Shown here: positions 15,590 through 59,442 of the stretch, piece by piece
Position numbering within the stretch: the first letter of the stretch is position 1
Layout of the letters: every line of letters starts with the position of its first letter
Assembly: GCF_036971445.1 (NCBI RefSeq)
Contig: NC_091471.1
Location: 356,004,001-356,068,000, forward strand
Source: Narcine bancroftii
Taxonomy: Eukaryota
Reading direction: 5' to 3'
Length of the DNA: 64,000 bases
Program-made: the position numbers and the translations under genes
Notes under the pieces: model-generated
The model's input: only the letters and a program-made list of their open reading frames with translations
Database searches by the model: none
Told to the model about the DNA's origin: nothing

Positions 15590-16230
15590 CTCCAGCCTCG
15601 GAAGTTAGGGGTCGGCCGAGGGGCCCGTCCGCAGCAGCTCGGGGAGGCCCGTCACGGCCAGCGGGGCCACAAGCGGCACAGGACCGAAGGAAGCGAGTCC
15701 ACGTCGGGAACCTACCCGGTCTTTCATGCGCCAGCTCTGCGTGACCGCCTTGGAGCCCTCGATCTTCTCCGAGTGCCGCTTCTTCATGAAAGCCACGGGC
15801 GTATTCCAGTCGGTCGCGTCGGTCTTCTCCCCCTCCAGCAGATCCTCCAGCAGGCTGACTCCGGCCATGCTGCGTCCACTTGCCCGGCTCCAGGCCTTCG
15901 CCCACCCTCCGGCTGCAGCAACCCCCCCGAAAGGGGGGGGTGGGATGGGGAGGAAGAGGGGGGCGGGGGGGGGAGGGACCTCCTTCTCTCGGCGGTAATA
16001 GAAATGAGGTTTAGAAGCCGCCGGTGCCCAGTTCTCGGCCACTCATCCCACCCGGCCGGAGGACGCCATCTTCAGCGAGACCAGCAACCCCCGCGCCCCG
16101 ACGGCAGAGCGAATGGCTCAGTTGCGCAACGACCTCCGAACTCGCGCGCGCTCGTCCCGGGGCTTTCCTGACCCTGGATGCGCTGCAAGTGCTTCCTTGC
16201 CCTGAATGCACGCAACGTTAGTCCGAATCA
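15590..16230 (-). promoter_or_regulatory. CpG island / RPTOR promoter and 5' leader
   Basis: Sharp rise in GC and CpG; YY1/TISU-like GAAGATGGCGTC (16073-16062); C/EBP-type palindrome GTTGCGCAAC (16121-16130); GC box GGGGCGGGG (~15960). Confidence 0.8.
15716..15868 (-). CDS. RPTOR: Regulatory-associated protein of mTOR (raptor), first coding exon (51 codons)
   Basis: MAGVSLLEDLLEGEKTDATDWNTPVAFMKKRHSEKIEGSKAVTQSWRMKDR matches the vertebrate raptor N-terminus (human ..TDWNLPLAFMKKRHCEKIEGSKSLAQSWRMKDR); phase-0 donor CGG|GTAGGT; CpG island; synteny with NPTX1. Remaining exons lie beyond position 1. Confidence 0.96.
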
Positions 16231-19915: not shown

Positions 19916-20265
19916 AAAAGGCAATTCCTTTGCCAGAGTGTCGTACTGTTTTTCAGCATAGAAACGAGCCCTTTCAACTTGTTGATGCTGACCAAGTTGT
20001 CTAATTCCATTTTCAGTGCATATGTACATTGTACAATGAGTATAACAATAAATCATAATTTACTGGCATTCAGCTCAATTCTGTCTGAACCTTTCCAATC
20101 CATGTGCCTGCCTAAATGTCTTTGAAATGTGACAATTATACCCTTCTCTATCATTTCCCTCTGTGAAAAAGGTGCCTTTTTAGATCTTTCTCCTTTATCT
20201 CCCCTTTAATCAAAGAGGTGGACTTGGTGAGTTCCTTGGTAAATTAGAATTATGAAATAATCTTA

Positions 20266-20625
20266 CAGTGGTTCTCAACCTTTTTCTTTCCACTCACATA
20301 CCACTTTAAGTAATCCCTATGCCATAGATGCTCTGTGATTAGTAAGAGATTGCTTAAGGTGGTATGTGAGTGGGAAGGGAAGGTTGAGAATCACTGCTCT
20401 GGACCCAATTGTTACTGAAATATTTGGCTTGAGAAAAATTGTCATTGGCCCATTTCCTTTGGAGTTCTGAAACTGTGCACATACTGTCAATTAGGTACGA
20501 TTAAAACAGGAGTTTTCAAACTTTTTCTTTCCACCCACGTATCACCTTACTAATCACAGAGCAGCCTGGCAAAGGGAATACTTAAAGTGGTTTGTGAGTG
20601 GAAAGAAAAAGGTTGAGAACCTCTG
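20266..20625. mobile_element. hAT-like dimeric MITE (two palindromic ~120-130 bp units, 20266-20396 and ~20507-20625)
   Basis: TIRs CAGTGGTTCTCAACCTTTTTCTTTCCACTCACA / TGTGAGTGGAAAGAAAAAGGTTGAGAACCTCTG; no clean 8-bp TSD seen. Confidence 0.75.
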
Positions 20626-20699
20626 TATCCTTTATGGTGAATAGCTATGTGGATTTTATTGGTTTTATTCTATCTTAAGAGAAAAAATATTTTGAGGAA

Positions 20700-25011: not shown

Positions 25012-25362
25012 GAGGAGGAGTCACGTGATGGAGTAGTGGCCGGTCAGGGAATTCCAGCCCTCTCCGGAAAAGTTAAAAACAATGCACAAAACGCAAAGGA
25101 ACAAGATTAAAATTTAAAACAAAGTAAAAATAAAGATAAGAAGAAAATGGCAGCGAAGAGAGAAAAGTCAAAAACAACGGGAAGAAGAGAAGAAGAAAGA
25201 ACGTCGGAAGAAGAAGGTGAAGGCCTTACCTGTCCGAGGAGGCCCGCCGCGGAGAGAGAAGCCCGCTCCCTAAGGTCAGTGGAAGTCCCGAGCTCGGGAC
25301 TACAAAAATGGCTCACAGAGCCGAGTAAAAGTGCGCAACCGCGCATGAGCGAGTAATCGCGC

Positions 25363-26394
25363 ATGCGCGATGCGCATGAAAAAATACACACTGACGGGAG
25401 GGGGGAACAGCTGCGGAGTCGATCTCCACAGCTGAGAGTGACAGCTGCAACACAGCAGCAGGTGCAGAACACAGACAATAACGACAACAAGAAAGAAGAA
25501 GGTAAAAAGAAAACAAGGAAACAACAGATGGTCAACCCAGAGGAAGAAGAAGAAGAAGAACAGAAAGAAATGGAAGAAGAAGAGAAAGGCAAGACAATGG
25601 ATATATCTTTTTTTAAAGAATATATGGAATCAGTGAAAGAGTGGCAATTACAAGAATTTAATGAGATAAAAAGAAGAATTATGAATGCAGAAGAAAAAAT
25701 AAATAAAATAGAAATGGTCATATCAGAGATAGGAAAAAGAGTGGATAATGTGGAAGAACGAGAAATAATTATAGAAATGGAAGTAGAGGACTTAAAAGAG
25801 AAATTAGAAGAATCTAATAAAAAAGTTAAAGAGGCACATGAGCTGTTAGCTCAGAAGATAGATATAATGGAAAACTATAATAGAAGAAATAATATAAAGA
25901 TAGTGGGCCTTAAGGAAGATGAAGATGGCAAGAATATGAGAGAATTTATAAAAGATTGGATCCCCAGGGTCCTAGGAAGACCAGAATTACAGGAAGAAAT
26001 GGAAATAGAGAGGGCACATAGAACATTAGCCTCGAAACCAGAACAGCAGCAAAAACCAAGATCCATTTTTGTAAAATTTTTAAGATATACAACAAGAGAA
26101 AATATATTGGAGAAAGCAATGAAGAAAATAAGAGAAGACAAAAAGCCACTGGAATATAAAGGTCAAAAAAATTTTTTCTATCCAGACATAAGTTTTGAAC
26201 TCCTGAAGAAGAGGAAGGAGTTCAATACAGCAAAAACGATCTTATGGAAAAAAGGATATAAATTTACGTTAAAGTACCCAGCGGTACTTAAAATAGTTAT
26301 TCCAGGGCAACAAAACAGACTATTCTCGGATCCAGAGGAAGCACGAAAATTTGCAGAACAACTACAAAACAAGCAGAGAGATGAAGACATGTAA
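25363..26394 (+). CDS. L1 ORF1p (coiled coil + RRM + CTD), open; true start may be a downstream ATG
   Basis: ENYNRRNNIKIVGLKE, IERAHR, KPRSIFVKFLRY, FYPDIS, LKYPAVL motifs. Confidence 0.88.
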   Translation: MRDAHEKIHTDGRGEQLRSRSPQLRVTAATQQQVQNTDNNDNKKEEGKKKTRKQQMVNPEEEEEEEQKEMEEEEKGKTMDISFFKEYMESVKEWQLQEFNEIKRRIMNAEEKINKIEMVISEIGKRVDNVEEREIIIEMEVEDLKEKLEESNKKVKEAHELLAQKIDIMENYNRRNNIKIVGLKEDEDGKNMREFIKDWIPRVLGRPELQEEMEIERAHRTLASKPEQQQKPRSIFVKFLRYTTRENILEKAMKKIREDKKPLEYKGQKNFFYPDISFELLKKRKEFNTAKTILWKKGYKFTLKYPAVLKIVIPGQQNRLFSDPEEARKFAEQLQNKQRDEDM

Positions 26395-26904
26395 TGAGAG
26401 TAAAAATGACCACGAACTATATGTATGTGTGTATATGGGTATATATATATAGATGTATATGTATATGTGTGTATACATGAATGTATCCATATTTAGAGGA
26501 AAATATATAGAGTATAGGTAAGAATCAATAAGGGAATGAAAGGGAATAGAGGGAATAAGGAGGGAATTAAAAGAGTGACCTTTGTTACATATGAAAATTG
26601 AAATCTTTTCCGGGGGGGGCTGGGTGGGGAGGAGTTACGGTCACTGCAAAATCAGTTGACGTTTGCGAGTGAATTCGCAAATCCAAATAGAGAGGGGAGA
26701 TGTGGTTGCCCGACAAGGGATAAAGGGCAACTCAGGAGGGGGAGGGGAGAATGGGGTTAAAGAAGTTTTAAATAGGAGAATAAGGAAAATATTTGATGTT
26801 TTAGAAATGTTGTCTTATAAAGTGTTCAAAACAAGAAAGCAGAAATGGATAAGAAGGAAAGGTGATGATGGTGAAATGGAAATGGAAGATAAACAAAGTA
26901 TGAA

Positions 26905-29900
26905 ATGGCTACGTTGAACTATATGACTTTAAATATTAATGGAATACATAACCAAATCAAAAGGAAGAAACTGCTAAATTTACTGAAAAAAGAAAAAAAT
27001 GATATAGCATTTGTGCAAGAAACACATTTAACTGAATTGGAGCACAAGAAATTAAAGAGAGATTGGGTAGGACATGTAACAGCAGTGTCGTATAATTCAA
27101 AAGCAAGAGGAGTAGCTATATTAATCAGTAAAAATGTACCAATTAAAATAGAAGAGGAAATAATAGATCCAGCAGGGAGATATGTAATGATAAAATGTCA
27201 GATATATTCGGAGTTTTGGAATCTACTCAATGTATATTCACCCAACGAAGAAGATCAAAAGTTTATGCAAGATATTTTTTTGAAGATAGCAGATACGCAA
27301 GGGAACATATTAATAGGAGGGGATTTCAACCTTAATTTGGATTCAAATATGGATAAAACTGGGAAAAAAATTAACAGAAAGAACAAAGTAACCAAATATA
27401 TAATTAAATCAATGCAAGAAATGCAACTTTTGGATATATGGAGGAAACAACACCCAAAGGAAAAGGAATATTCATATTATTCAGGTAGACATAAAACATA
27501 CTCAAGAATAGACCTATTTCTGTTATCAGCTCGTATGCAAGATAGAGTAAGAAAAACAGAATATAAAGCTAGAATATTATCGGACCATTCACCCTTGATA
27601 TTGACAATAGAGTTAGAGGACATCCCTCCAAGAATGTATAGATGGAGATTAAACTCCATGCTACTTAAAAGGCAGGATTTTAGAGAATTCATTGAAAGAC
27701 AAATTAAAATGTACTTTGAAATAAATACGGAATCAGTGAAAGATAAGTTTATACTATGGGATGCAATGAAAGCGTTCATTAGAGGGCAAATAATAAGTTA
27801 TGTAACCAAGATGAAGAAGGACTATAATCAGGAAACAGAGCAGTTGGAAAGGGAAATAGTAAATATAGAAAAAGAATTAGCAATGAAGGAAGATACAACT
27901 AAAAGAAGAGAATTGGCAGATAAAAAAATAAAGTATGAAACACTACAAACATATAAGGTGGAGAAGAACATAATGAAGACAAAACAGAAATATTATGAAC
28001 TAGGGGAAAAAACGCACAAAATTCTAGCATGGCAGCTTAAGACAGAACAAGCTAAGAAAATGGTATTGGCATCAAGGAAAAAAGACAAACAAATCACATA
28101 TAATCCAACGGAGATCAATGAAAACTTTAGAGAATTCTATGAACAATTATACCAAACTGAAAACGAAGGGAAAGAAGGCAAAATAGATGAATTTTTAACT
28201 AAAATTGAACTACCAAAATTACAAATTGGAACAAAATAAATTAACAGAACCATTTGAAATAGTAGAAATACAAGAGATAATAAAAAAAAACTACCAAATA
28301 ATAAAACACCAGGAGAGGATGGATTCCCAATAGAATTCTATAAAACATTTAAAGATTTATTAATTCCTCCCCTCCTAGAAGTAATCAACCAGATTGACAA
28401 AACACAAAGCTTACCAGATTCATGTAAAACAGCAATAATTACAGTAATACCAAAGCAAGGGAAAGATCCACTCGCACCAGCGTCATATAGACCAATATCA
28501 TTACTTAACACAGATTATAAGATAATAGCTAAACTATTAGCAAACAGATTAGCAGATTATGTGCCTAAAATGGTAAATCTAGACCAAACTGGATTTATTA
28601 AAAAAAGACGCACAACAGACAATATTTGTAAATTTATTAACTTAATTCATGCAGTAGAAGGGAGTAAAGCGCCAACAGTAGCAGTTGCTTTAGATGCAGA
28701 GAAGGCTTTTGACAGAGTAGTGTGGAATTATTTATTCAAAGTATTGCAAAAATTCAGTTTACCAGAGAAGTATATTAATTGGATTAAAGCATTATATAAG
28801 GGGCCATTGGCGAAAGTGACAGTAAATGGATATATATCAAAGCAATTTAACTTAAGCAGATCAACAAGGCAGGGATGCCCACTATCACCCTTATTGTTCG
28901 CGTTAGCTATAGAACCACTAGCAGAATTGATAAGAACAGAAAATAATATAAAAGGGATAAAAATAAAAGACAAGGAATATAAAATCAGTTTATTTGCGGA
29001 TGATGTTATAGTATACTTAACAAAACCAGAACTATCAATAAAAGAATTATATAAGAAATTGAAGGAATATGGAGAAGTGTTGGGTTACAAGATTAACGTA
29101 AATAAAAGTGAAGCAATGCCAATGAATAATGCGGATTTCTCAAAATTTAAGAAGGAATCACCATTCAGATGGCAAATGCAAGCAATAAGATACCTAGGTA
29201 TACAAATAAATAAAAATCTCGGCCATCTATATAAACTCAATTATTATCCACTAATGAAAAAATTACAGGGCAATTTAGAGCATTGGAAAGATTTACCATT
29301 AACACTAATAGGAAGGATAAACTGTATTAAAATGAACATTTTCCCAAGGATATTATACCTATTTCAGGCATTGCCAATACACTTGACAGAGAAATTCTTC
29401 AAGGAGTTAAAGAAAATAATAAGGAAATTTTTATGGAAAGGGGGGAAACCGAGGATAGCACTAGATAAATTAACAGAATGGTATAAACAAGGAGGCTTAC
29501 AACTGCCAAACTTTAAAAATTATTATAGAGCCGCACAATTAAGATACCTATCAGATTTTTACCAAACAAGGGAAAAGCCAGATTGGACTAGATTAGAACT
29601 AGATAATATAGGGGAAAAGATACCTGAACACATATTATATAAATGGGATGAAAAATTGGTACAACGTAGGAGTTCTCCAGTATTACATCATCTGCTCAAT
29701 ATTTGGAAGAAGATTCATGTAGAAAGGAATAAAACAAATTACCAATTACCAAAACTATTAATGACGCAAAATCAGTTACTCCCTTTTACAATAGATAACC
29801 TTTCCTTTAGAGAATGGGAGAAAAAAGGGATCAAAAGAATAGAAAATTGTTTTTCAGGAAATAGATTATTTCCTTTGAACAAATGAAAGATAAATACAAT

Positions 29901-30700
29901 ATAACTCAAGATACAGTGCTGGCATATTACCAATTGAGATCCTACTTGAAGGACAAATTAGGAAGCAGTCTGAGGTTACCAGAGGGAAGTATCTTTGAAT
30001 ATGTGATTACAGATACAATGATAATCAAAAGATTTATAACAAATATGTATATTAAACTGCAAGAAAAGGAGAATGAGGAAACAAATGGTAAAACTAACAA
30101 AAATGGGAACAAGATTTAAATATAAAGATAAAAAAGGAAACATGGGAGAAGTTAAGTTCTGGAACGATGAGAAATACAATAAATACGAGGTTACGTATGA
30201 TACATTATAACTGGATACACAGGCTATACATTACACCTCAAAAGTTAAATAAATGGGACCCAACAGTATCTGACCGATGTTTTCGTTTTAAAAAAGAAAT
30301 GGGAACAACAATTCATGCAATCTGGACATGTGAGAAAGTAGAAAAATTTTGGGAAGATCTAAACCAGATATTAAATAAAGTTACAGAAAACAATATACCA
30401 AAAAACCCAGAAATCTTCCTCCTAAGTAACATAAAAAACAAAGAATTTGGAATTGATTTGGATTGTGCACAAAAAAGATTTGTTAAGATAGCTCGAGCCG
30501 TAGCAAAAAAATGTATTATGTCAACCTGGAAATTGGAAGATAATTTGAGAATACAACAATGGTATATAGAAATGAGTAAATGTATTCCATTAGAAAAAAT
30601 AACATATAGTTTAAGAAATAATATTGAAATATTTGAACAAATATGGGAGCCATACATGAAACACAATAGAGAAAATCTACCGGGGACATTCACCACCTAA
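26905..30700 (+). pseudogene. L1 ORF2 (APE endonuclease, RT, C-terminal Cys region), broken by about four frameshifts
   Basis: EN NINGI/FVQETH/GGDFN/SRID/SDHSP; RT LDAEKAFDRV, TRQGCPLSP, LFADDV; shifts near 28227, 28285, 29870, 30098; zinc-knuckle CFRF..H..C has lost its second Cys. Confidence 0.92.
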
Positions 30701-44460: not shown

Positions 44461-47400
44461 CTTTTAAAGAGGGGTCAATGCTAGATAATTGGTGGGCGTA
44501 TCGATTCATTTTTAAACAGTTCTGAGTCCTGTTCCTTGATCTGACCATGCCCAATAACAACTTCACTGAAACATTGCTAAAGGGCCAACAACATGCAGTT
44601 TTCCATGAAGGGGGAAAGGGGTGGGGTGAGTATAAACAAGAGATTCATGGGAAGATCAGTAGGTTTCAAATAAAGTTAAAGAGCAGCAGATCAAGAGATC
44701 CAGCAGAGCGGGTGAACACAGGGGAATACAGTGATTTGTCCTTGTTCTAATATAATCCTCTTTTAAAATTGAGAGAAGCCTTTCAGCCCATCAGATCTAT
44801 ACCTGCTATGACAGCAATCCCTTTCCCGTGCATTATTTTTGCTCTCATGCCCTTAATTGCAACCCCCAAACCATGGATTCTTCTGTCATCCACTCACACT
44901 AAAGAGAACTTACAGTGACCATGGTCCTTTCCAGCACATCTTTGGGGCATGGGAGTAGATATGAGCACACTGGGAAACTCACACGGTCACAGGCAGAACA
45001 TGCAAACACCACATGGCAATGCCTGAGGACAAGATTGAACACAGAACCCTGAAGCTATGCAGTAGCAACACTGACTTCTATGCATTTACTGACCCAAGGG
45101 GTCACTATTCAGATCCAACCTCACACTCTCAGATGGCTCAAAATGATGTCCTATGAAAAATGTCTCAAGACATTCATTTAGCTTAACTGTCATTGGTATT
45201 TTACATACAACCAAAAGGGAAGATCTTTATCATGAGAATTTTAAAATGTGCACGCACTGTAATGCATTAAAGTCTCATAACATAGCGTGGGGGATATGGG
45301 GGGGGGGGGGTGAAATCTCAGTATCTTGCTCTCAGAGGAGAGGGTGTTGCTATAGAGTCCTGTTTCACAGTGTGGGCAACTTAATTAGATTTATGTAGTG
45401 GCCTTAATCTAGAAAAAAAAATCAAAAGATACTTCATAGCAATATCACAATCTAAATTGACATCACCACAAATCAAGAAATATTAGGGCTATTGACCAAG
45501 GAGAAGAGTTGCCAACATAAAAGCAACTTAAAGGGGGAAAGAGGGTTAGAGGTGGCGAGGTGGGGGGGGGGGGGGAAATCTCAGTGCTTACAACATTGGC
45601 AACCAATGGCAGAGCAATTACATGCAATGGATAAAGGTTTCAGAGGAGAAGATGAGATCATGGAAGAATTTGGAAACAAAGATGTTAACTTCATACACCA
45701 TTGCCACACTGACATGTCTGTCTATGGCCTCATGCACTGCCAAATCAAGGCCCCACGCAAACTTGTATTTTGACTCGGGACCTTCCAACCAGATGGCATT
45801 AAATCAACTTTTCCAATTTTCCATTAGATTCATTGTCAGTGTACATACACAACATCACAGTTGAATCCTGAGATTCTTTTTCCTGTGGGCAAGGCAGAAT
45901 TACCACTTATTGGCAGTGCAAAAAAAAACCTGACTGCAACACAAAGAGATTCTTTCTCTTCTACCCTCCCACCTGTATCCATCACTTACCTCTTACCTGT
46001 GCTCCTCCCCCTTCCCATTTCTCCCTCCTTTCCTCTCCTCCTCCCTGCCCACTGCCTTTTTTATTCCTGCGTCTACAGTACCTGTTTTTCCAGATTCCTG
46101 ACGAAGGGCTCGGGCCAGAAACGTTGATTGCCTTTAACTTCCTATCGATGCTGTGTGACCTGCTGAGTGTCTCCAACACTTCTGTGTTTTGCACTAGACC
46201 CCAGCACCTGTGGACTTTCTCATTTTAGAAGAGAATTAAAAGTTGTGGCAAAGCAAGCCAGGAACTACTGTAGATCAATAAACAATGGGATGAAGGGAGA
46301 AAGGAGCTGAGTGTAGCAGAAGAGTTTTGAACAGCTTCAAGTTTATAGATGATGCAATAAAGATAGTCAAACAGGTGGGCAGTGCAATAATCTAGACTAG
46401 TAGATGGAAGGGAAGTAAATCACAAAAATCTGTTGACACCGTCGTTGAAGTAAAAATGCTGGAGAAGCTCAGCAGGTCAAACAGTGTAGCAAAGGTGAAG
46501 ATACAGAACCGACGTTTTGGGCTTGAGCTCCATCAAAGTATCAAGTGTGCACAAGGGCTGTGAGGTTCAGCAGAAGATGCCATGATCCAGAGGCAGAGAG
46601 AAGTGTTGGCATAAAAGTGGAAAGGGGCCGCATCAGCGAGGACAGAAACTGGTTGTCCAAAGCTCATTCTAAGATCAAATGTGGCACCAATATTGTGTTT
46701 TGTCTTGTTCATTTTTTGACTCCTGAAAGAGGATGTCAAATTCTGGGTTTGTAAAATATTTTCAACTTTGATATATCCAGGCATTCTGTGTCTGAATTCA
46801 TAAATTAGAAAATATTTACAACGCACCAGAGTTTACTGAGCACTAATTAAAATAAAAAACTGCGCGTGTTGGCGATAATTAGGACATTTCCTTGTCAATG
46901 ACACTTTTGGCTCTTATGAACATAAATCTTCTACACTCATTTTTCTGGCTAAGTTGGGTCTGCTGATATTGGGAGGTTCTTGTAGTTTCTGTTCAATCGG
47001 TTATTTCAATAGGATACTGTTGTCTAAGTAACTTAATTTTGCTTTTAGTGGAATCAGATGTCTATTGTGTGACAAATGGCCTTCTCCATCTCACATTCAT
47101 TGGTTGAACCATTGTAGTAAATTGTTTGCAAACCAAAAGGGCAAATAAATGTGAGCTCCATTGGAATCCATGACTGACCTGGGTGGAAGTCCTCTTACCA
47201 GTGTGTGATCTTTGTGTGCATTGAGGTTTGAGTGCATTGGCTTAGCCTTGCATTTTCAGAGACCCTGTTTGTTATTCAGATCTCATACTGCTGCTTAGAG
47301 AGATGGAGAAAAAAAGCTTTTGCTGATGTATTGTTCAACATTCCTCCTCCAAAAGTAATTTACTGTTTGAAGTGCCTTGAGATGTTTTGATTATGCAATA

Positions 47401-47630
47401 AGCGGCAATACGAAAAATACTTAAATATAAAATAAAAAGCCTAGAGGCATGGGGAATGCAAAGGTACATACAAGCACACCCCAGATAGTCTTCCATGTAT
47501 GAATTATCTGGACATTTTATAAACTATAATTTGTCTTAAAAAAAATATTTCAATCCACATTATTGTGGCGTAAGGAAATATAATGCCATCGTGATATTTT
47601 CTATCATCTGTAATCACTGATCATCGATTA

Positions 47631-47960
47631 TGGTTTTTAGACTGCAGGCATGTGTCGGCACAATCCAGGAATTTTGCGGCTCCACTGGAAGTCTAAAAAG
47701 GAATGTGCAGAAATTTTGAGTCAATTCCTGTCCCACAATTTATCCTGCAGGACCCCTGCAACTTTTTGGAGGAAGTCTGCAGTGTAAATCGTACCGGAAA
47801 AATTCGTCGACGGTCATCCACTCTACCGCACATCCAACCATCGGGATTGTTGCACTCAGGTACTTGCAGTATAAAAAGGCACTCAGTGTGGACGACCACA
47901 CGGGCAGTAATTATGCTAGTTTTTTCCTACGATTTTCATGACTTTGCAGTCTAAAAACCA
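47631..47960. mobile_element. PIF/Harbinger-like MITE
   Basis: TIR TGGTTTTTAGACTGCA / TGCAGTCTAAAAACCA flanked by TTA and TAA. Confidence 0.65.
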
Positions 47961-48619
47961 TAAATGATCAGTGAGGTCACTGATAATCTTTGTCAATAGA
48001 ATCCAGCAGATATATTGACGACAATGCCTCCCATTCTCCATTCTGTTCTGTCAGTTTCTGTAGTAGTTTACCTGATGATGACTGTCATTGACAGGCCTCC
48101 CAGTGGCATCCACTGCATTTCTGATCCTTGTATTCTTGTCTCTCCTCCACCACCCGCAGGTGCCCTCACCTTCATCAACCAACTTCTACATTCATTTTAT
48201 CATCCTCTGCAAATTCCATCCACTTTCATTTAAGTGCATGTGTCAAGCTCATCCTCCCTTCCATTTCATGGGCTGTGGACTAGGTACAGGTCAGTGGGGC
48301 TAGGCAGAATAATAGTTTAACACAGTCTAGAAGGGCCAAAAGGCCTGTTTTTTTTTGTTCTATGGTTGCACAGTTCAGTGAACCCACTGATTCACTGCTC
48401 CATCTCCACCACCACAGGAACTGCATCGCCTGCTCACCATCCAAGGGGAAGTAGTAATTCATTTGCTCTTCTTCTGATTTAGAGTATTGCATTTGATCAT
48501 GATGTGGTCTCTCCTACGATGGTATGTATATAAACACAGATTTACATATGATCAAAAGAAATCGGAACAGGAATAGGCCATCTGGCCCATTGATCATCTG
48601 TCTTTTCAGTCTGGAAAGA

Positions 48620-48905
48620 TGGCCCATCTACGGCCTAGTATAGGTCCTTCAGCCCTTGATGTTGTGCCAACTTATACTGTATATTCTACCAAAAGAAGTA
48701 CTAAAGCTTTCCTGCCTCATAACCCTCTATTATTCTTTCATCCATGTTTCAGCTTCCACCACCATGAATGGTGGGAGGAAATCAGAGCCCATGAGGAAAC
48801 CCACACAGATATGGGGAGAACATACAAACTCCTTACTGACAGCATGGGATTCGAACACCAGTCCCGATCGCTGGCACTGTAAAGGTGTTGCACTAACCGT
48901 AATCC
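48620..48905 (-). mobile_element. V-SINE (HE1-like)
   Basis: gtgggaggaaatcagagcccatgaggaaacccacacag..tacaaactccttac..gggattcgaac..cactaacc. Confidence 0.75.
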
Positions 48906-49551
48906 CAAATGTTCACTATTCTTGCCCTGCGAAAATGCATTGGCTTCCATCGCCCTTATCAATGCCTCTCAGCAACTTGTTTAAGTCTCCTATCATCCTT
49001 CTTCGCTCTGAAGGGAAAAGTCTGCTAACCTTGCCTCATGAGAATTTATTTTCCATTCCAGAAAACATCCTGGTGAACCTTCTTTGCACCCTCTCCATAG
49101 CTTCCATGTCCTTCCTATAATGAGGTGACCAGAACGAACACAAAAAGTCAGAGATTCCACCCCACTCTGACCTCTCTATCTTCCCACACTATTCCTAGGA
49201 AAAATGGTGTAAGCTCCAGGGACAACTTCCTATCTTCCAACCATGCCTGTTCTAGCCTTCAGAACTAATGTTGGTTTCAACAACTTAGCTTTTTAAAAAA
49301 AACTTTAATTAGAATGAAGCCAGTACACCACCCCACCCCCTCGCTATGTAATGGTGTGTAACGATTTACAACTCTCTCATTAGCTATCTTTGACTTGATT
49401 ATGTCGTTTTTGCAATCAGTTTCGGCTGTGTGGTTTTATGACCAGGTGTGTGATCCTTTGATAAGGCACACATACATGTCGCAGGAAGACGACATTTTCC
49501 ACATCAGATATTTTTGCATCATTCCTGTCTGCGTTCGAATTACAGGGCCAA

Positions 49552-49583
49552 GTCAGAAATGGGTGGAATCCCAGTTTAAATGC
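49552..49583 (-). repeat. Perfect 32-bp inverted copy of NPTX1 proximal promoter segment 56642-56673
   Basis: GTCAGAAATGGGTGGAATCCCAGTTTAAATGC is the exact reverse complement of GCATTTAAACTGGGATTCCACCCATTTCTGAC. Confidence 0.93.
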
Positions 49584-51031
49584 CCAATTTCTACGTCAAC
49601 TCTACAGGCAAACCCTTCTTCATCCCCGACTGTCACCAAGACCCTGAAAGTTTTAACCTGGCTCTCAACAAAGGTCCAATTCCATCCGCAACCAAAGCCT
49701 TAAAAAAAGTTATTTCTCATTGATCCTCTGACATCAACCGAAAGAAAAGAAATTCATCGCTTAGTAACAAGAGAATACCTTCGGGATCCAAAGCGAGAGT
49801 TTGATTTCAGCAAATAAATAGACTTTAACGATCCTCGTTCAGAATTGATGAAGTCTTAGCTTTAATTGGAAAGTTTGTTGGTAAGAGAGGGGGAGGGGTT
49901 GAACACTTCCAATATTAATAGAAGTGCCATGAATCATCACTCATTAAATATATATATCCTGATAAATTTAGTTCAGTGAAGCATAAAAAAACTCGCAGAA
50001 TGGAATAATATTATTGTCACTGTACACATAGATTTGGAAAGATCCGTTCAGGGTGTGAAATTGTAAATTTAGACACTGTTCATCGGAATTGGGCAAGGCA
50101 GAGGAGAAGATGCTAGTGAGTTACAGACTTCTCCGAATGGCAGCGTTGCTGCAGACCACAACGACGTGATTGAGCGCGAAGCCAAGCAGATACTCAGCCC
50201 GACCTCCCCCTTCCACACCTGGACCCTTCAATAAAACGCGGGGGTGGGATCAATGACCACGAGTAATGAGAGTAGATGCGAAGACTGAGGCTGGGCGCTG
50301 CTTGGCAGAACCATTGGCGTTCTTTCTCGCCAGGTACGAATACTCACTAAATAAACCTCCCGTATCATAAAGCAAATCATCACGGAGGCCAAATTAATCA
50401 CTTTATCGTGGGTGAAGAAACCCGCCTCCCGGGGAACATGAGAATGAACCTAGAAACATTTTTGAAACGTTTAAAGACTCGAATTTGCATTTCCTCTGTG
50501 CTCCTGGACGCTGAAAGATTAGATTATAATTCTCCTCGAACAGCAATGTTATAGCGGATACATCTTCTTTAGAAATATTGACTGGGTGATAAATCCTGGC
50601 CGAGGTGCTGACGATCATTCTGTTGGCATCTCTTGGTTCCCAAGTACAATTGCCGCCTATTCGGTCGGGGTTCGGCCACTCTCTCTTTAAATGGAGCCCC
50701 AGACGCCCCAAGGTTAAAGGCCAAGAAACGACAGCTGCCCCCTGACCAGCTTGAGATGCTGTTGGATCAACCTTGGACTTTTGCTCCAAAACAGCCCTCT
50801 GGACCTCGAGAGAAAGGGTCCCGAATAGAAACATTGGGTGGCACGGATTGGTGAACCGAAACGACCTGTTTACCGTGCTGCAGGTCTAAATGTAATTTTT
50901 TTTAAAATTGACTGTCCATTTCTCTCATGGCTGAGTGAGTCCTTCCAGTTTCTCTTTGCTCATTTACCCTTCTGTCCGCTGAATCCAAGCATTTGAGAAA
51001 GAGCCCTCCACTGTTTTCACAGCTCCCTCTC

Positions 51032-54000
51032 TGTGGTGGTACACTACCCGCCGACTGCAGGGGGAAACCCCTGTACCTGGCCGGCTGTCAATCAGTCGGC
51101 CTGAAGAGATCAAGAGAGTCAATCACCCGGTACACCCAATAAGCCTGTACCGGCCTCCCGAGGCCTCACTCAGAATTGCTGCAGCCATAGCCAGCCTGGC
51201 TCTGTGGAAGTCTTTGTGGATTAAAGCCTGTTGTACAGTCGTCTTTACCTTGTGTATGTCTGATTCTGGTTAACAGCACACCACAATTTAATCCACAAAA
51301 TTTTCCTACGCTGCCATGGAAAAGCTCCTGAGTGCAGGGAGCCTCAAAGTTGACCTACGCCACAGGAAAGCCCAGACTCGCTTTTGAGATCTGGCAGCAT
51401 GCGGTCGAGGCACCATCGAGGCACACGCATCCTGGACTCAGATCGGACGAGGCTGGTCCTATTCTGGTCAAACCTGGGTCCCCACGCCTTCCAGGCAACC
51501 AAAGGCTGCTCCATGTACAAGAGCTCAATAGACATGCTTGAGAACTTGTACAAGCCACCCATGAATGAGGTCTGTGCAAGGTACCTCCTCAACACCCATG
51601 CCCAGCAACCCAGGGAGACGGCTGAGTCTTACCTGGGACACCTGCGAGAGTTGGCCCGACCATGTCTGGCTGAACCCGGGGTAGGCCCAGAGGAGGTTGA
51701 GAGGCTACGCTCGAGGGCCATCCAGCCGAAGCTGCTGGAAGATAGTATCTACGCCCTGACCAAGACAGTGGAAGTGGTCCGAACCCTGGAAGCTGCAGCC
51801 CTGCACATCGAAGCCTTCGATTCCAGGTGCCCCCAGGCTCCCTCATGGCCCTCTCGCACTGCAGCTGCAGCCCCAGGCTGAGCTGGGGAGGAGAACATTG
51901 TTGCGGCAGGTGCCTGGCGCCCCTGTAAGTACTGTGGGTCCTGGTGTGGGTCAGACCAACGATCGCGCCCAGCTAGGGCAACTGTTCCCGATGCGGCAAG
52001 AGAGGCCACTTTGCTAAAGTGTGCCTCTCAAAACCAGCCGGCAGCTCAGCAGCCCTCTATGACCTCCCCACCTTCCCCGTGGACCCCTCCACGTGCGCGT
52101 GCCGAGCCATGCCATTGTCCCTGCTACAACTTCTGCCTTCCCCAACTCAGACGGTGCAGCATCCGGCTCCACCAGCGACAATCACAGCGTGTGCCCCAAG
52201 CATCTGGACCAGACCCCGCCCTCGCGGCTTGCCGAGAACTACAGAGATGTCACTTCCAGCTCACAGCGTGATGTCACTTCTGGCAGATGTAATGACGTCA
52301 CTGCCGCCAGCGCAAGAAACACGACTGGGGAAGGCCAGACACGCAGTGGGCCCCCACGTGCCGCTGCCAGCTTGGGCCAGGCAGCAGCCTACACGGAGGG
52401 CCCCTGATGATGAGGAGAACAACGTGGTCAACACAGGCGATGACCAGGCCACCCTACCGACGCTCCCCATGCCTCCGGATGCCATCAGCTGCTGCATGCC
52501 GCACCCCACGAATGACATCAACGTGGTCAACACAGGCGATGACCAGGCCGCCCTACCTACGCTCCCCACGCTGCCGTACACCATCAGCTGCTGCACGCCG
52601 CAACCCACGACTGATGTAGACATGGTGAACACGGGCGATGACCAGGCCGCCCTACCGATGCTCCCCACACCTTCAGATGCCATAAATCACTGCACACAAC
52701 CGGACAGCAATGACTCCGACCCTGAGACAGTCCTGGCTGCCACCACACTGACCAGGCACATCCCTCACGACCTCAGATGCTCTATGATAGTCGTGCAAGT
52801 CAACGTGCAGGTAACAAAATGCCGGTTCGACAGTGGCAACACCTAGAGCTTCATTCATCCGAGCGTGGCCCACTCCCTGAGATTAAAAGTCCACAAACCA
52901 TCTGCTCGATCGCCCTCACCGCCAAGGATAAGACTGTTGGTACCCTCGGGTGCTGCTCGGCCAATATAACTGTGGGAGGGGAGACTTACACGGCATTCAG
53001 GCTCTTGGTCATGCCCAAACTCTGCACCCTAGTCCTCCTGGGCCTAGATTTCCAGTGCCACCTGCAGAGTGTCACCCTTGCCTTCGGCCTCCACTCACGT
53101 TACACAGTACGGAAACCTATCAGCCCTGGCCAACCTGCAGCCTCTCCACACTACGCATCACCCCACCGGCGCTCTTCCCACATCTTATGCTAGGCTGCAA
53201 GCTGATCGCCGTCAGAAGTAGGCGCTATTGCGCCATAGACAGAGACTTCAAGGAGGTGGTGTGGCGACTCCTGGTGGAAGGTGTCATAGAGCCCAGTAAC
53301 TGCCCTTGGAGAGCCCAAGTCCTGGTGGTCAAAGGGGGAAGTAAGCCGAGAATGGTCATCGATTACAGCCAGACCATTAACCGGTACACCCAATTGGACA
53401 CCTACCCCCTGTCTAGGATCGCCGACGTGGTCAATGAGGTAGCCCGCTACTGGGTTTTCTCCACGATTGACCTGAAGGTGGCGTATCACCAAATCCCCAA
53501 CCATCCAAAGGACAAGCCCTACACCGCCTTTGAGGCAGACGGGCGCCTATACCAGTTCCGCAGAGTTCCCTTTGGGGTCACGATCCGTCTTCCAGCAGGA
53601 GATGGATCGCATGGTAGTCCGGCACAAGCTAAAGGTTCCTGTATCTGGATAACTTCACTATCTGCGGCCGTGACCAGCAGGACCACAATGCTAACCTGGA
53701 TAAATTCCTCCAGACGGCCGGGAACTGAACCTCACTTATAACAAGGAGAAGTGTGTATTTAGCACCACCTGCCTCACCATCCTGGGGTGTCCTGGCCTCG
53801 CCATCCTGGCCCATTGGATCGTCAGCCCAGATCCAGAAAGGATGCACCCATTAATGGAGCTACCTCTCCCCCACCCCCCCCAAGCTAAAGGCCCTCTGCC
53901 TATTCTCCAATTACTCCCAGTGGGCCCCTTGCTTCTTGAACAAGGTCTGCCCACTGGCCCAGTCTACAACTTTTCCCTTCCCATCCGAGGTGCAGGGAGC

Positions 54001-55554
54001 CACGATTCAGGCCGTGGATGAGGACTCCCCCTTCCAGGTGGAGAGCGATGCCTCTGATTTAACCCTCGCCGCTTCCCTCAACCAAGGGGGGCGCCCCGTC
54101 GCTTTCTTCTCTAGGACCCTCCACAGCTCCGAGCTAGGGCATTCTACCATTGAAAAGGAGGCCCAGGCGATTGTGGAAGCAGTCCGCCACTGGCACTAAT
54201 TCACCCTCCTCATGGACCAGCGGGCTGCAGCGTTCACGTTTATCACTGCCCACAAGAGCAAGGTCAAGAATGACAAGATCCTGCGCTGGAGAGTCGAGCT
54301 GGCGACCTACAGCTACAACATCCAGTACCGCCTCGGGAGGTTTAATAACTCCACTGAGTCATTATGCACGATAACAGGCTGCAGGCAGTGCATGAGTCCC
54401 TCTGCCATCCAGGTGTCACCAGGTTGTACCACTTCATTAAGTCCTGGAACCTGCCGTACACCATCACGGACATCAGGGATATGACCGAGGCCTGTCGAGT
54501 CTGTGCGGAGTCTAAACCTGTTTCTTCCGCCTGTCCCAGGCCCATGTCGTAAAGACCATTCGGCCCTTCAAGTCTCTCGGCATGGACTTCCAAGGGCCCC
54601 TGCCGTCCATGATCTGAAACATCTACTTCCTCATGGTAGTGAACGAGTACTCATGCTTCCCTTTCGCTATCCCTTGCCCGGACACCTCTACGGCCACTGT
54701 CATCAAGGCTCTGGGGCAGATCTTCACCATGTTTGGGTACCCCGCTCTCATCCACAGCGACTGGGGGTCTAGTTTCTTGACTGATGAGGTGCGCCATTAC
54801 CTGACTAGCCACACGAGTTATAACCTGAGAGGCAATGGGCAAGTGGAATGCAAAAGTGGGGTGATCTGGAAGACAGTCCTCCTGGCTCTCAAGTCGAAAG
54901 GGTGGGCCGTTAAGTACTGGCAGAACATCCTGCCCGAGGCGCTGCATGCAATTTGGTCGCTGCTATGTATGGCTACCAACAAGACCACTCATGAACGTCT
55001 GTTCACATTCCCCAGGTAGTCGGCAACTGGAATGTCCCTCTTAGCATGGCTCACATCCCCAGGACAAGTGCTCCTGCGTAAACATGTGCGGACACACAAG
55101 GCTGAAGCCCTGGTCGAGCAGGTCTTCCTCCTACACGCGAACCACATCTACGCTGATGTTAGGTTTGGCGGTGGCAGGGAGGACACAGTCTCAACCAGAG
55201 ACCTGGCACCAGTAGGCACACCACTCCACGGCATCCTTCAGCCCAGGATGATGCTGACTGGGCATACATCCCCATCCCCAGGCAGCTATGGGGCACACAG
55301 GACCTTCTTGACCACCAGGGGCCCGTTTCATCCCTGGGGGACGAACCTGCCCCCCCCATCCATCCAATACGACTTGACCCTGGCCCCCTTTGCCACCCCT
55401 CCGTAAGGCACCACACCAGTCACACAGACCGGAGGCCTCACTCAGAGTTGCTGCAGCCACAGCCAGCCTGGCTCTGTGGAAGTCTTTGTGGATTAAAGCC
55501 TGTTGTATAGTCTTTCCCTCGTATAGGTCTGATTCTGGCTCACAGTGCACCACA
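51032..55554 (+). mobile_element. Ty3/Gypsy LTR retrotransposon, near full length but decayed
   Basis: 5' LTR TGTGG...CCACA 51032-51285; partial 3' LTR ~55431-55554; gag from ATG ~51316 with CCHC remnant ~51985-52024; protease FDSG ~52827; RT PWRAQVLVV..IDYSQTINRY..YLDN; RNase H VESDASD..EKEAQAIVEAVRHW; integrase HPG..C..C, DFQGP, HSDWGSSF, NGQVE. Confidence 0.93.
52421..52700 (+). repeat. In-frame 99-bp tandem repeat (~3 copies) inside the Gypsy gag-protease linker
   Basis: NVVNTGDDQA(T/A)LP(T/M)LP...AISCC...PT.D repeated three times. Confidence 0.88.
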
Positions 55555-56599
55555 CCCTGTGGTTCTGTTTCAGTCAAACCCCGACCCTGTTCTTGCGACC
55601 TCGAATCAAACAGAGTCTGTAGCCACACCTCGACCACTGGAATAGTGAAGTATCATCTACGTTCAGCTTTAGTCCGAGCTGAGACGGATAGAATTGCCCA
55701 AAGCGAAGTGTGCGAGGGTGAAGGGGAAGGGGTTGGAATCGATGTCCACTTATGAACTAGATCGTTACGGAGGTGGGCGACTCGGCAGTTAAAAGTGATC
55801 CCGGAAATAACCACAGTGGGTCCAGCCTCAGAAACACGCATGAATCGAGCCGGCGGGGACGAATCTCCACTCAAAGCACCACCGTTCAATAACGCTAGAA
55901 GTTTTCAAGGACGAAAATCCAACGGGGGCCAAAAATACATGGCTTTTACCGCCAAATATTTCAGCTGCCATTAAATGGACCATCTTATAAATGGAAAGAC
56001 CCGTCTCTCTCTCTCTCTCTCTCTCCTACCCACTTAGAATGCACAATTCAATCAGCCAAACTCTGGGTGACTGATATTCCCAGACATTTTAACACAAAAC
56101 TCGCAGCTTTCCTGCTTTTACTCCTTAAAAAAGGTGGATTTTTGCCAAATCAGTCTTCATTAAATCTAGTGTTCTATCTCGTGTCTTATTTACTCTCCCC
56201 AGCATGTCCATCAGATCTAATGAACGCAATATATTTAAGGAAAATGAGGATTGGGTGGGTGGGAAGGGAGAGCGATATCGGATCCGGTTTCTGAGGACGG
56301 CTTTAGTTGTAACAACTTCCACACATTCACAGTGAGAACAGTTTGAAAGCAGACGATGTGTTTTTCAAACGGTTTCACCTCAACTGTCCCCGTTGTTGCA
56401 AAAACGAATACTGTCCGCTGATATTAATGCACAGGGTTAAAACCCCGCATCGACTCCTTTTAAAGAACACTAAAAACTTGCTGGTCCAACGTCAGATTCA
56501 CAAATAATTGATATTTCCAGCCACAAAGTACATTTTTAACTTAGTTCGGAGGATGTGCACATCTCCGGTCTTCGTGGGGACCCAAGTGAGGGCGATGTT

Positions 56600-56710
56600 C
56601 AAGATTGGTGGGGTTGACGTGGTCGCCAGACAAGAAACGGAGCATTTAAACTGGGATTCCACCCATTTCTGACGTGGTCCCGTGTGGCGCTCCTCCTGCT
56701 GTATAAAGCG
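56600..56710 (+). promoter_or_regulatory. NPTX1 proximal promoter
   Basis: TATAAA at 56702-56707; two TGACGT CRE-type cores (~56615, ~56670); inverted CCAAT (ATTGG 56604-56608); CpG-rich; ~165 nt upstream of the ATG. Confidence 0.72.
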
Positions 56711-56869
56711 TGCCCGAGCCTTGTGCACGGCGTCAGTGTTCGGTGAACAGCTCCTTGGTGCTGAAGTCGCTTTGCGGGAACTCGCGGGCTCAGGCAACAT
56801 TTCACCCCTCGAATCCACCTCCCAACCCCTCCCACCCATCACCCCCTCCACCTCGACTCTCCTCGAAAG

Positions 56870-57166
56870 ATGTCCCGCGGAACCGTCGGCAGATATTTCA
56901 TCCTCTCTTTCCTCGTGGCCAAAGCAGCGGCCCAAGAATTCGCCCAGACGCGTTTCATCTGCACCTCCATCCCTCTGGAGATGGAGCCGATGTGCTCGGC
57001 TCCGATGCAGAACAGCGGCCCGGTGGAGGACATCAAGGGGACTATACTCCAGCTCCGAGAGACCATCCTGCAACAGAAAGAGACGATCATGAACCAGAAA
57101 GAGACCATCAGGGAACTCACAGCCAAACTGAGCAGATGCGAGAGTCAAAGTACCTCAGGCTCTTCG
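56870..57166 (+). CDS. NPTX1: Neuronal pentraxin 1, exon 1 (signal peptide and first coiled coil); end placed at in-frame donor TCG|GTGAGT, ancestral donor is at 57306
   Basis: AAAQEFAQTRFICTSIP..LQLRETILQQKETIMNQKETIRELTAKLSRCESQS matches NPTX1. 3' boundary uncertain (57166 versus 57306 with a 1-nt frameshift). Confidence 0.85.
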
Positions 57167-57306
57167 GTGAGTGAAATGAAATCCGGGCAGGGCTCGGCGA
57201 GGGCGCTAGAAATTCCGCGGCAGGTCTCTCTCTAGATCAAGTGGACACTCCAAATCAATTTGGACAAACTTTAAAAACAGTCAAAGCACGCCTGGCGAAT
57301 TTTGAG
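57167..57306 (+). other. NPTX1: Ancestral 3' part of NPTX1 exon 1, frameshifted and diverged
   Basis: A different frame reads RNSAAGLSLDQVDTPNQFGQTLKTVKARLANFE|GTAAAT, homologous to human KNTMGDLSRTPAAETLSQLGQTLQSLKTRLENLE; the ATG frame stops at TAG 57233-57235. Confidence 0.8.
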
Positions 57307-57673
57307 GTAAATATGTACAATTAGAAAATGAGAAGTCTCAAACCAAATGAGAAAGTAATTGTTAATTGCATTACCTAGGACAGTAAGTTAGTCCCACTGT
57401 ATATAGGTGATAGATTTAAAGAGTGGCTGAATCAAAACATTGATTAAGAATTATATTTAAATCCGATTATATTAAACGTGCCCCTTTAAACAACACGAAA
57501 TAATCGGCTGATTGGGAAAGATAGAGGTAGGTGTGCTGTGCACTGGACCTGGGACAGTGTGAGTTAACGGGTCAGAACAATGTCCATAATGCGGTGTTTA
57601 CTTCGAGCCTCCTTTCAGCCGATAATCCGCTTCTGACACCCTTTTTTCTCTTGCATTCGCCCCTCGAGCACAG

Positions 57674-57884
57674 CAGTACAACCGTGCCAACACCACCGCT
57701 CAGACAAATACCTTGAAAGATCTGCTGCAGAACAAAATAGACGACTTGGAAAGGCACGTCCTCTCCCGGGTGAACAGTTTGGAAGAGACCAAAAACCTGG
57801 TGAGGAACGACACGACGGAGAACAGAGGAAAGATTGAAAACGCGCTCAATTCCCTTCACCAGAGGATCAGTGACTTGGAAAAAG
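57674..57884 (+). CDS. NPTX1: Neuronal pentraxin 1, exon 2
   Basis: cacag|CAG; QYNRANTTAQTNTLKDLLQNKIDDLERHVLSRVNSLEE..LHQRISDLEK G|gt. Confidence 0.93.
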
Positions 57885-58649
57885 GTGCGCACCCGATCCG
57901 AACAGTCTGAACTCAAACTCCCCGAGCAGTCTGTCCCCCAATGAAGTTGCATCCCGCAAGGAGCAGGAGGCAGCTCTCTTTAATTGTTAATGTTACTCGC
58001 TGTAAATGCCACAGATCCCTTATTTAACGCGCCTTAACACGGGATAGAACATTTTAAAATATTGGTTGTTTGCTGATCGGATGGAATGAATGCTGTTGTA
58101 TAGAGAGAACAGGTAAAATGTTATAATGATGGTGAATAAGTGAGGTGTCCGTAAACGCTGTAATAACGCCATATTCCTGGTTGCTGGAAAACGGGAGATT
58201 GAATAAGCGGTGAGAACGGAAACTCAGCGAAACCCCTTCCCAGATAACAGGGAAGGCAGCGGCTCTGTTGAGCGAGCAGACCGCAGCCAGGTGCCTCGCG
58301 TCCGAACATTACAACAGCATGTGCCGGCAACTGCGAGCTTCCCTGAAACTTCTTCCGGATGGCCGAGTGCGGAGACCACCCCCCGCACCACCTCCCCCCC
58401 CCCCCCCCCCACCTCCCCGGGCCGGCGTTGCTGCAATATGGATTGCGCAGCGGTCTCCCACTATAATGGAATCACTGAGATCCCAGGGCGCCTCTCACAT
58501 GATTCGGATTATGCTGCGGGATGCGCTGATGGGAATTAATCCGGAAAGGCAGTTATATAAGAAATGATCCAGTGTTAGTACATCGCTGCAGGTTTGGATT
58601 CAGCCACACACGATGTACCGAATAATGTTTATCATGTATTACTTTGTAG

Positions 58650-59319: not shown

Positions 59320-59442
59320 TAGATTCTCAATCGTTTTCCCTCTCACAGACCATCGTAAGTCATCCCTTACGAACCACAGAGCACCGATGTAGATTGCTTA
59401 AGGTGATCTGTGAGTGGGGAAAAAAAAGGTTGAGAAGCACTG
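59320..59442. mobile_element. hAT-like MITE monomer in NPTX1 intron 3
   Basis: gattgcttaaggtg..tgtgagtggg..aaggttgagaagcactg matches 20266-20396. Confidence 0.65.

Follow-up and report, generated by a model that had tools for sequence, protein, structure and literature searches.

A perfect 32-bp inverted copy of an NPTX1 promoter element in a conserved upstream block of Narcine bancroftii, a candidate promoter-derived enhancer

How does a 32-bp piece of a proximal promoter come to stand a second time, letter for letter and in inverted orientation, 7 kb upstream of the same gene, and what keeps the two copies identical? The question is raised by NPTX1 (neuronal pentraxin 1) of Narcine bancroftii (NCBI RefSeq assembly GCF_036971445.1), in a stretch of 64,000 nucleotides (contig NC_091471.1, positions 356,004,001 to 356,068,000, forward strand) that we call the window and whose first letter is position 1 throughout. 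Our comparisons demonstrated the identity of the two cores, their low copy number, the presence of the upstream copy in a second species, a homology of ~100 bp between the copies and a conserved block in which the upstream copy lies. Based on these observations, we consider it probable (roughly 0.6) that the promoter-proximal module underwent an ancient inverted micro-duplication that left out the TATA box, that the copy now lies in a conserved block that would act as an enhancer, and that purifying selection holds both cores.

An exact inverted pair of cores in few copies

The two cores are:

49552..49583, minus strand: 32-bp core, upstream copy, in the opposite orientation to the one at the promoter (exact reverse complement; in a second species, organism C, no difference is listed over 49547-49582 and one at 49583)

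56642..56673, plus strand: promoter copy of the 32-bp core (exact inverted match)

A reading of this DNA from its letters alone (the sequence-only reading) had claimed a perfect 32-bp inverted copy, and the comparison of 49552-49583 with the reverse complement of 56642-56673 gave exactly that: 32 of 32 positions agree and the neighboring base mismatches on either side. This pair is the longest exact inverted match of the 64-kb window, where the chance expectation for a match of this length is ~1e-10. Extended without gaps, the pair is 88% identical over 51 nt (49542-49592 and 56633-56683). The promoter copy ends 28 nt 5′ of the TATAAA at 56702, close to the ~30 nt that had been proposed. An exact search of metagenome contigs with a 22-mer from the core returned no matches, as did a search of the text of open-licence papers and preprints with a 14-mer. 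In the same literature we found neither a description of this NPTX1 element nor a report of an enhancer that arose as an inverted copy of a promoter.

Copy number was judged from contigs of sequencing runs aligned to 49140-51150 at 80% likeness, for which four of the 15 listed runs were used (X4, X5, X6 and X8). The source-type DNA run X4 yielded one contig over 49140-49581 with a single difference and another over 49554-51104 with none, and a 31-mer graph would apparently be interrupted by a 32-bp repeat at precisely these ends. Contig depth, a crude measure of copy number, was 20 in the core bin and 5.1-5.6 alongside. The excess amounted to 844 depth-bases, against 657-753 expected for two copies and with a ceiling of about three, while true repeats within the same stretch reached depths of 900-91000. 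Because the depth fits about two to three copies and the contig breaks fit a 32-bp low-copy repeat, the core is not high-copy, and the objection that the sequence-only reading had raised against itself, a high-copy repeat fragment, falls away. X4 is possibly the assembly's own data, so the weight against an artefact rests on the second species.

We therefore regard a fragment of a dispersed repeat or of the end of a miniature inverted-repeat transposable element (MITE), or an assembly artefact, as scarcely credible. In its favor stands a third, weak likeness of the core that lies inverted at a distance of 380 nt, and against it stand the low depth, contig breakpoints as expected of a real 32-bp repeat and a copy of the element in another species.

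49151..49171, plus strand: possible third, degenerate partial copy, doubtful (17/21; matched by 3/2000 shuffles in 400 bp, 21/2000 in 1 kb and 18/40 window-wide)

The post hoc 21-mer behind this look-alike beat 60 of 60 random windows, but in a fair window-wide test 18 of 40 shuffles did as well, and it was rejected as a copy. The statement that the core resembles no repeat in the window thus held as far as repeats are concerned and has to be softened for this one weak likeness. The look-alike (49147-49171) is bracketed by a 7-bp inverted repeat and adjoins a repeat fragment that ends near 49135.

The duplicated segment and the conserved upstream block

How far does the likeness reach beyond the core, and how old is it? 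The features needed for this comparison are:

49542..49643, minus strand: full duplicated segment of ~100 bp (flanks 50/65 identical; 12-nt gap after 49592; organism C has 12 more letters between 49584 and 49603)

56567..56683, plus strand: NPTX1 promoter-proximal module, likely donor, with two TGACG/ACGTG words at 56615 and 56670 (alignment; patchy match to the L002 promoter, 4/300 shuffles)

56702..56707, plus strand: NPTX1 TATA box, not duplicated (aligned with the TATA boxes of loci L001, L002 and L003)

56745..56765, minus strand: element like RE1/NRSE (repressor element 1/neuron-restrictive silencer element) in the 5′ untranslated region (UTR), not duplicated (conserved with L001; left half-site 56757-56765)

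49547..50100, no strand: conserved non-coding block, candidate enhancer, bounded on its left by the copy within the reach of the contig (organism C alignment; no Rfam match, and no Pfam match for two flanking open reading frames)

In a global alignment of 49542-49643 with 56567-56683, 50 of the 65 columns outside the core were identical and a single 12-nt gap followed 49592. The flank blocks ACGTCAAC and CACC/GAAGACC aligned in the inverted order that had been claimed for a patchy flanking similarity. By position counts, which give numbers and not letters, organism C has 12 additional letters between 49584 and 49603, at the point of a 12-nt promoter stretch that is missing from the window's upstream copy, so that the homology spans ~100 bp. 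No homology was found past ~100 bp in the distal comparison (8/60 shuffles scored as well). On the other side, the exact match ends within the promoter's proximal TGACGTG word, at its CpG; the upstream copy no longer has this word, and a more distal TGACGT word is present in both copies. A comparison of the upstream region with the TATA box, 5′ UTR and exon 1 found no homology (140/200 shuffles scored as well), and no TATA box was found at the matching upstream place, in line with the earlier statement that it was not retained. Lacking TATA box, 5′ UTR and proximal CGTG word, the copy is no like-for-like core promoter. At the measured flank identity of 77%, a perfect run of 32 within the 102-column alignment has P ~0.004. 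The non-coding pair thus consists of two homologous copies in one genome, with a 32/32 core, ~100 bp of homology and no Rfam or Pfam match; the searches behind the latter gave no matches at E 0.1 over 47000-58000 (Rfam) and none for the two open reading frames beside the upstream copy (Pfam).

The age of the copy was read from run X8 (organism C), which has 7% of sampled words in common over the gene and supplied a single contig of 1446 bp that is colinear with the window over 49547-50704. A colinear contig across the upstream copy indicates that the copy is old. Over 49547-50100 the contig aligned in a single piece (46 substitutions, 68 gap letters); beyond 50100 (to 50704) only pieces of 34-59 bp reached 80%. 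Judged by continuous against short-piece alignment in this one species, 49547-50100 is under constraint that exceeds that of its flanks. No difference is listed for the upstream copy over 49547-49582, and the first stand at 49583 and 49584. The six differences listed within 49583-49643 comprise two to the promoter letter, three away from it and one opposite the gap, a pattern expected of independent drift from one ancestor. Flank divergence between the copies is ~23%, against 8.5% (10/118) between the species in the same zone. The duplication is thus older than the species split, perhaps two to three times older by a rough estimate. An old inverted duplication with an identical core and decayed flanks, as the sequence-only reading proposed, agrees with the colinear copy in organism C, the restored 12-nt stretch and the low probability of the run of 32.

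Two observations concern the block itself. Its most conserved part with respect to organism C, 49853-50100 (5 listed substitutions in 140 bp), has no promoter homologue and may be a separate regulatory element. Run X5, of RNA type and available as contigs, had none over or to the left of the core, from which silence cannot be concluded. It did have a 741-bp contig over 49961-50701 without differences, at depth 5 and starting just past a TA-rich run, possibly a non-coding transcript or DNA carry-over and likewise no evidence on expression.

The promoter side was followed by aligning 20 exon-1 proteins, which led to four loci among 62 candidate metagenome-contig stretches. Locus L004 begins inside exon 1, and promoter DNA was compared in the other three, L001-L003, which appear bony-fish-like by protein similarity and extend no further than 1.1 kb upstream, not far enough to show an upstream copy. 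In N. bancroftii, the TATAAA at 56702 lies 168 nt 5′ of the ATG at 56870. The stretch from the TATA box to the element that we take to be RE1/NRSE-like scored 51 against L001, and none of 300 shuffles did as well. The L002 promoter gave a patchy core match (4/300 shuffles as good), and the L003 promoter is cut just before the TATA region by other sequence. At L003 (positions 1-900), what stands upstream of the CGTG word in place of the promoter resembles a fragment of a long interspersed nuclear element (LINE). Since bony-fish-type promoters have the TATA box and part of the module, the NPTX1 promoter is likely the donor. From these contigs, the proximal module appears to be an old part of the NPTX1 promoter, and the 32-mer does not appear invariant across jawed vertebrates. 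As to conservation, which had been proposed as a check, the upstream copy is present and colinear in one other species, organism C, and the promoter core matches patchily in one of the three bony-fish-type loci.

What keeps the two cores identical

Under the explanation that we favor, ~100 bp just 5′ of the NPTX1 TATA box would have been copied in inverted orientation to a site ~2.5 kb upstream. The direction was presumably from promoter to upstream site, and the copying probably occurred by template switching. A Gypsy insertion, which would have come later, may then have pushed the two copies 7 kb apart. The upstream one would now stand at the edge of a ~550-bp block that works as an enhancer, with NPTX1 as its putative target. 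Both places may bind the same set of factors, and purifying selection on each copy would hold the core at its ancestral sequence while the flanks drift.

51032..55554, plus strand: degenerate Gypsy-type long terminal repeat (LTR) retrotransposon between the copies, with a shortened 3′ LTR and no clear target-site duplication (reverse transcriptase, RNase H and integrase domains; repeat edges 51028-51032)

With this element removed the arms stand 2535 nt apart, in agreement with the ~2.5 kb given before.

Which factors might bind is a matter of short words. The motif GGGATTCCAC, described earlier as NF-kB-like, fails the kappa-B consensus (GGGRNWYYCC), which has no matches in either region, and the GLI consensus does not match either. 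We take CCACCC to be KLF/SP-like and TGACG/ACGTG to be either like the cAMP response element (CRE) or bHLH-PAS-like. Human NPTX1 has been reported as a target of AhR, with GCGTG cores upstream (PMC8874566; this and the other cited papers are represented here by excerpts of their text). The excerpted report fits the CGTG word of the promoter and says nothing about the upstream copy, which is without the proximal word.

Several points weigh against the favored explanation. The core could not be assigned to any named factor. Among bony-fish-type promoters it varies: the match is patchy in L002 and, in L001, no better than that of 118 of 300 shuffles. Within the window alone the likeness of the flanks is weak: the anchored score was matched by 5/150 shuffles for the 5′ flank and 3/150 for the 3′ flank, and the distal flank part by itself was equaled by 124 of 1000. 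Between species, zero changes in 36 bp has P ~0.04 at the mean rate of the block, whose listed changes leave other change-free runs of 46, 37 and 36 bp. The listing omits seven of the 46 block substitutions and may drop differences close to the ends of contigs, and it is at such an end that the core sits. Only one of two other species was informative, as run X6 (organism B) gave one 151-bp identical piece plus repeats.

Part of this evidence would suit a neutral relic, that is, an old duplication with a luckily long run in a slowly evolving elasmobranch genome, inside a block conserved through its other sub-blocks. Such a relic would gain from the modest P of the between-species invariance, which other runs equal, and from the dependence of the outcome on the flank identity assumed: at a true identity of 85-90% a run of 32 is unremarkable (P 0.06-0.26). 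At the measured identity the run is improbable (P 0.004), however, and organism C aligns at 80% only in short pieces beyond 50100, so that neutral drift there is large. We consider a relic quite unlikely. Concerted evolution would require selection on the promoter copy only, with short-tract gene conversion between the inverted copies keeping the upstream core identical, and it would account for a sharp 32-bp identity amid flanks of ~77% in copies a few kilobases apart on one chromosome. The upstream core of organism C is apparently unchanged, however, which selection explains without conversion, and the surrounding 550 bp, for which the promoter offers no homologue (8/60 shuffles), are conserved too. 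A species-specific change common to both copies was not seen, in data that for organism C cover the upstream copy. Conversion over ~30 bp of homology is inefficient. On balance this process, too, is unlikely.

The remaining alternatives give the copy another role. The sequence-only reading suggested a divergent promoter pointing toward RPTOR, which would start a minus-strand transcript, either a long non-coding RNA or a distal RPTOR start. The orientation fits, since exon 1 of RPTOR is a minus-strand exon near 15868, and the human genes are likewise opposite-strand neighbors (PMC2965758). Nevertheless, the TATA box, 5′ UTR and exon were not copied, there is neither a TATA box nor downstream promoter homology at the upstream site, no GTRAG donor occurs on the minus strand within 49140-49551, and RPTOR's own start is 33 kb away. 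The suggestion is unsupported, and we hold it to be very unlikely. A pairing code would make identity itself the object of selection: an enhancer RNA and an upstream-antisense RNA of the promoter (or the two DNAs) would pair and direct the enhancer to its promoter. Thirty-two perfect bases exceed the need of single binding sites, minus-strand transcripts across both copies would be complementary, and RNA-duplex-guided Alu pairs (PMC12649098) and a complementary 32-nt pair of paralogous conserved non-coding elements (CNEs; PMC7139118) offer precedents. Against pairing, no transcript was seen over either core, no compensatory change was observed, and a composite binding site is the simpler account of the identity; we give it hardly any credence. 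The most far-reaching version, in which a promoter gave rise to its own enhancer by copying itself in inverted orientation, with the copies kept complementary across the cartilaginous fishes for an RNA- or DNA-pairing tether, is a speculation with the odds heavily against it. If true, such a tether would be a single-locus, repeat-free version of complementarity-guided enhancer choice. A selected, promoter-derived enhancer remains our preferred explanation.

The locus and its meaning for enhancer origins

The gene names NPTX1 and RPTOR, assigned earlier from the letters, were borne out by structure matches in PDB. Exon 3 matches NPTX1 structure 6YPE best (E 1.4e-37, versus 8.1e-32 for NPTX2), and the exon 1 protein is 92-94% identical to 'neuronal pentraxin 1 like' of sawfish and manta ray. 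The RPTOR first-exon piece was identified by the PDB search; Pfam gave no match for it.

56870..57306, plus strand: coding part of NPTX1 exon 1; the long form is frameshifted and the short form ends at 57166 (protein comparison)

The long form of exon 1 measures 437 nt and carries a frame change near 57194-57201, with a net loss of ~13 nt in comparison with the orthologues of sawfish and manta ray. The break is skipped by an internal splice donor, in frame, after 57166, whose counterpart is used in a shark isoform (P0004). Only the long NPTX1 isoform would therefore be lost, and the break may reflect either a private allele or an error of the assembly. Elsewhere in the window, the Gypsy element contains three tandem 99-nt units (52415-52711; 71-87% alike), which keep the frame of an open stretch of 289 aa. 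At 25357-30700 lies a LINE-type element that is almost intact, with an ORF1-like frame (345 aa) and three pieces of ORF2 (448, 542 and 200 aa). A 364-bp MITE-like element lies at 20264-20627, with 61-nt arms at 93% and a related end at 59417-59442.

Known systems resemble the NPTX1 pair in part. In its working, the upstream copy would be comparable to a duplicated CNE or to a shadow enhancer. Paralogous CNEs, such as the 32-nt HOTAIR/HOXD11 pair (PMC7139118) and vertebrate paralogous conserved non-coding sequences (PMC3595034), are similarly two long-kept short non-coding cores near a neural gene that are proposed to be enhancers. As excerpted, these reports concern paralogous loci from whole-genome duplication, whereas the NPTX1 pair occupies one locus, is inverted and has the gene's own proximal promoter as one copy. 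The pair is thus no duplicated CNE in the classical sense of paralogous loci from whole-genome duplication, its copies being 7 kb apart at NPTX1. Local duplication of regulatory modules (PMC3188502) likewise copies nearby sequence, with conserved sites outlasting their flanks. In the excerpted account, however, ~7-bp sites are copied within ~50 bp, in contrast to ~100 bp over kilobases and in inverted orientation at NPTX1. Repurposing of promoters and enhancers (PMC6172195) shares with our candidate the promoter-type sequence serving as an enhancer. The excerpt describes one orthologous element that changes its role, mostly from enhancer to promoter, whereas at NPTX1 a copy would have been made and the original promoter stays. 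In Alu pairs (Liang et al. 2023, as related in PMC12649098) a complementary sequence is common to enhancer and promoter. There it belongs to a transcribed, high-copy transposon, while the NPTX1 pair is low-copy, promoter-derived and known here from DNA alone.

The scope of the finding is one locus in one lineage and the enhancer role is putative. An alignment of sharks and rays could separate independent selection on the two cores from concerted evolution. Enhancer origins are mostly inferred from statistics, and a source that is visible, here the gene's own promoter module in inverted orientation, would turn this locus into a clean experiment of nature. With a TATA box next to only one of the two identical cores, the locus would moreover offer a direct handle on promoter versus enhancer activity.

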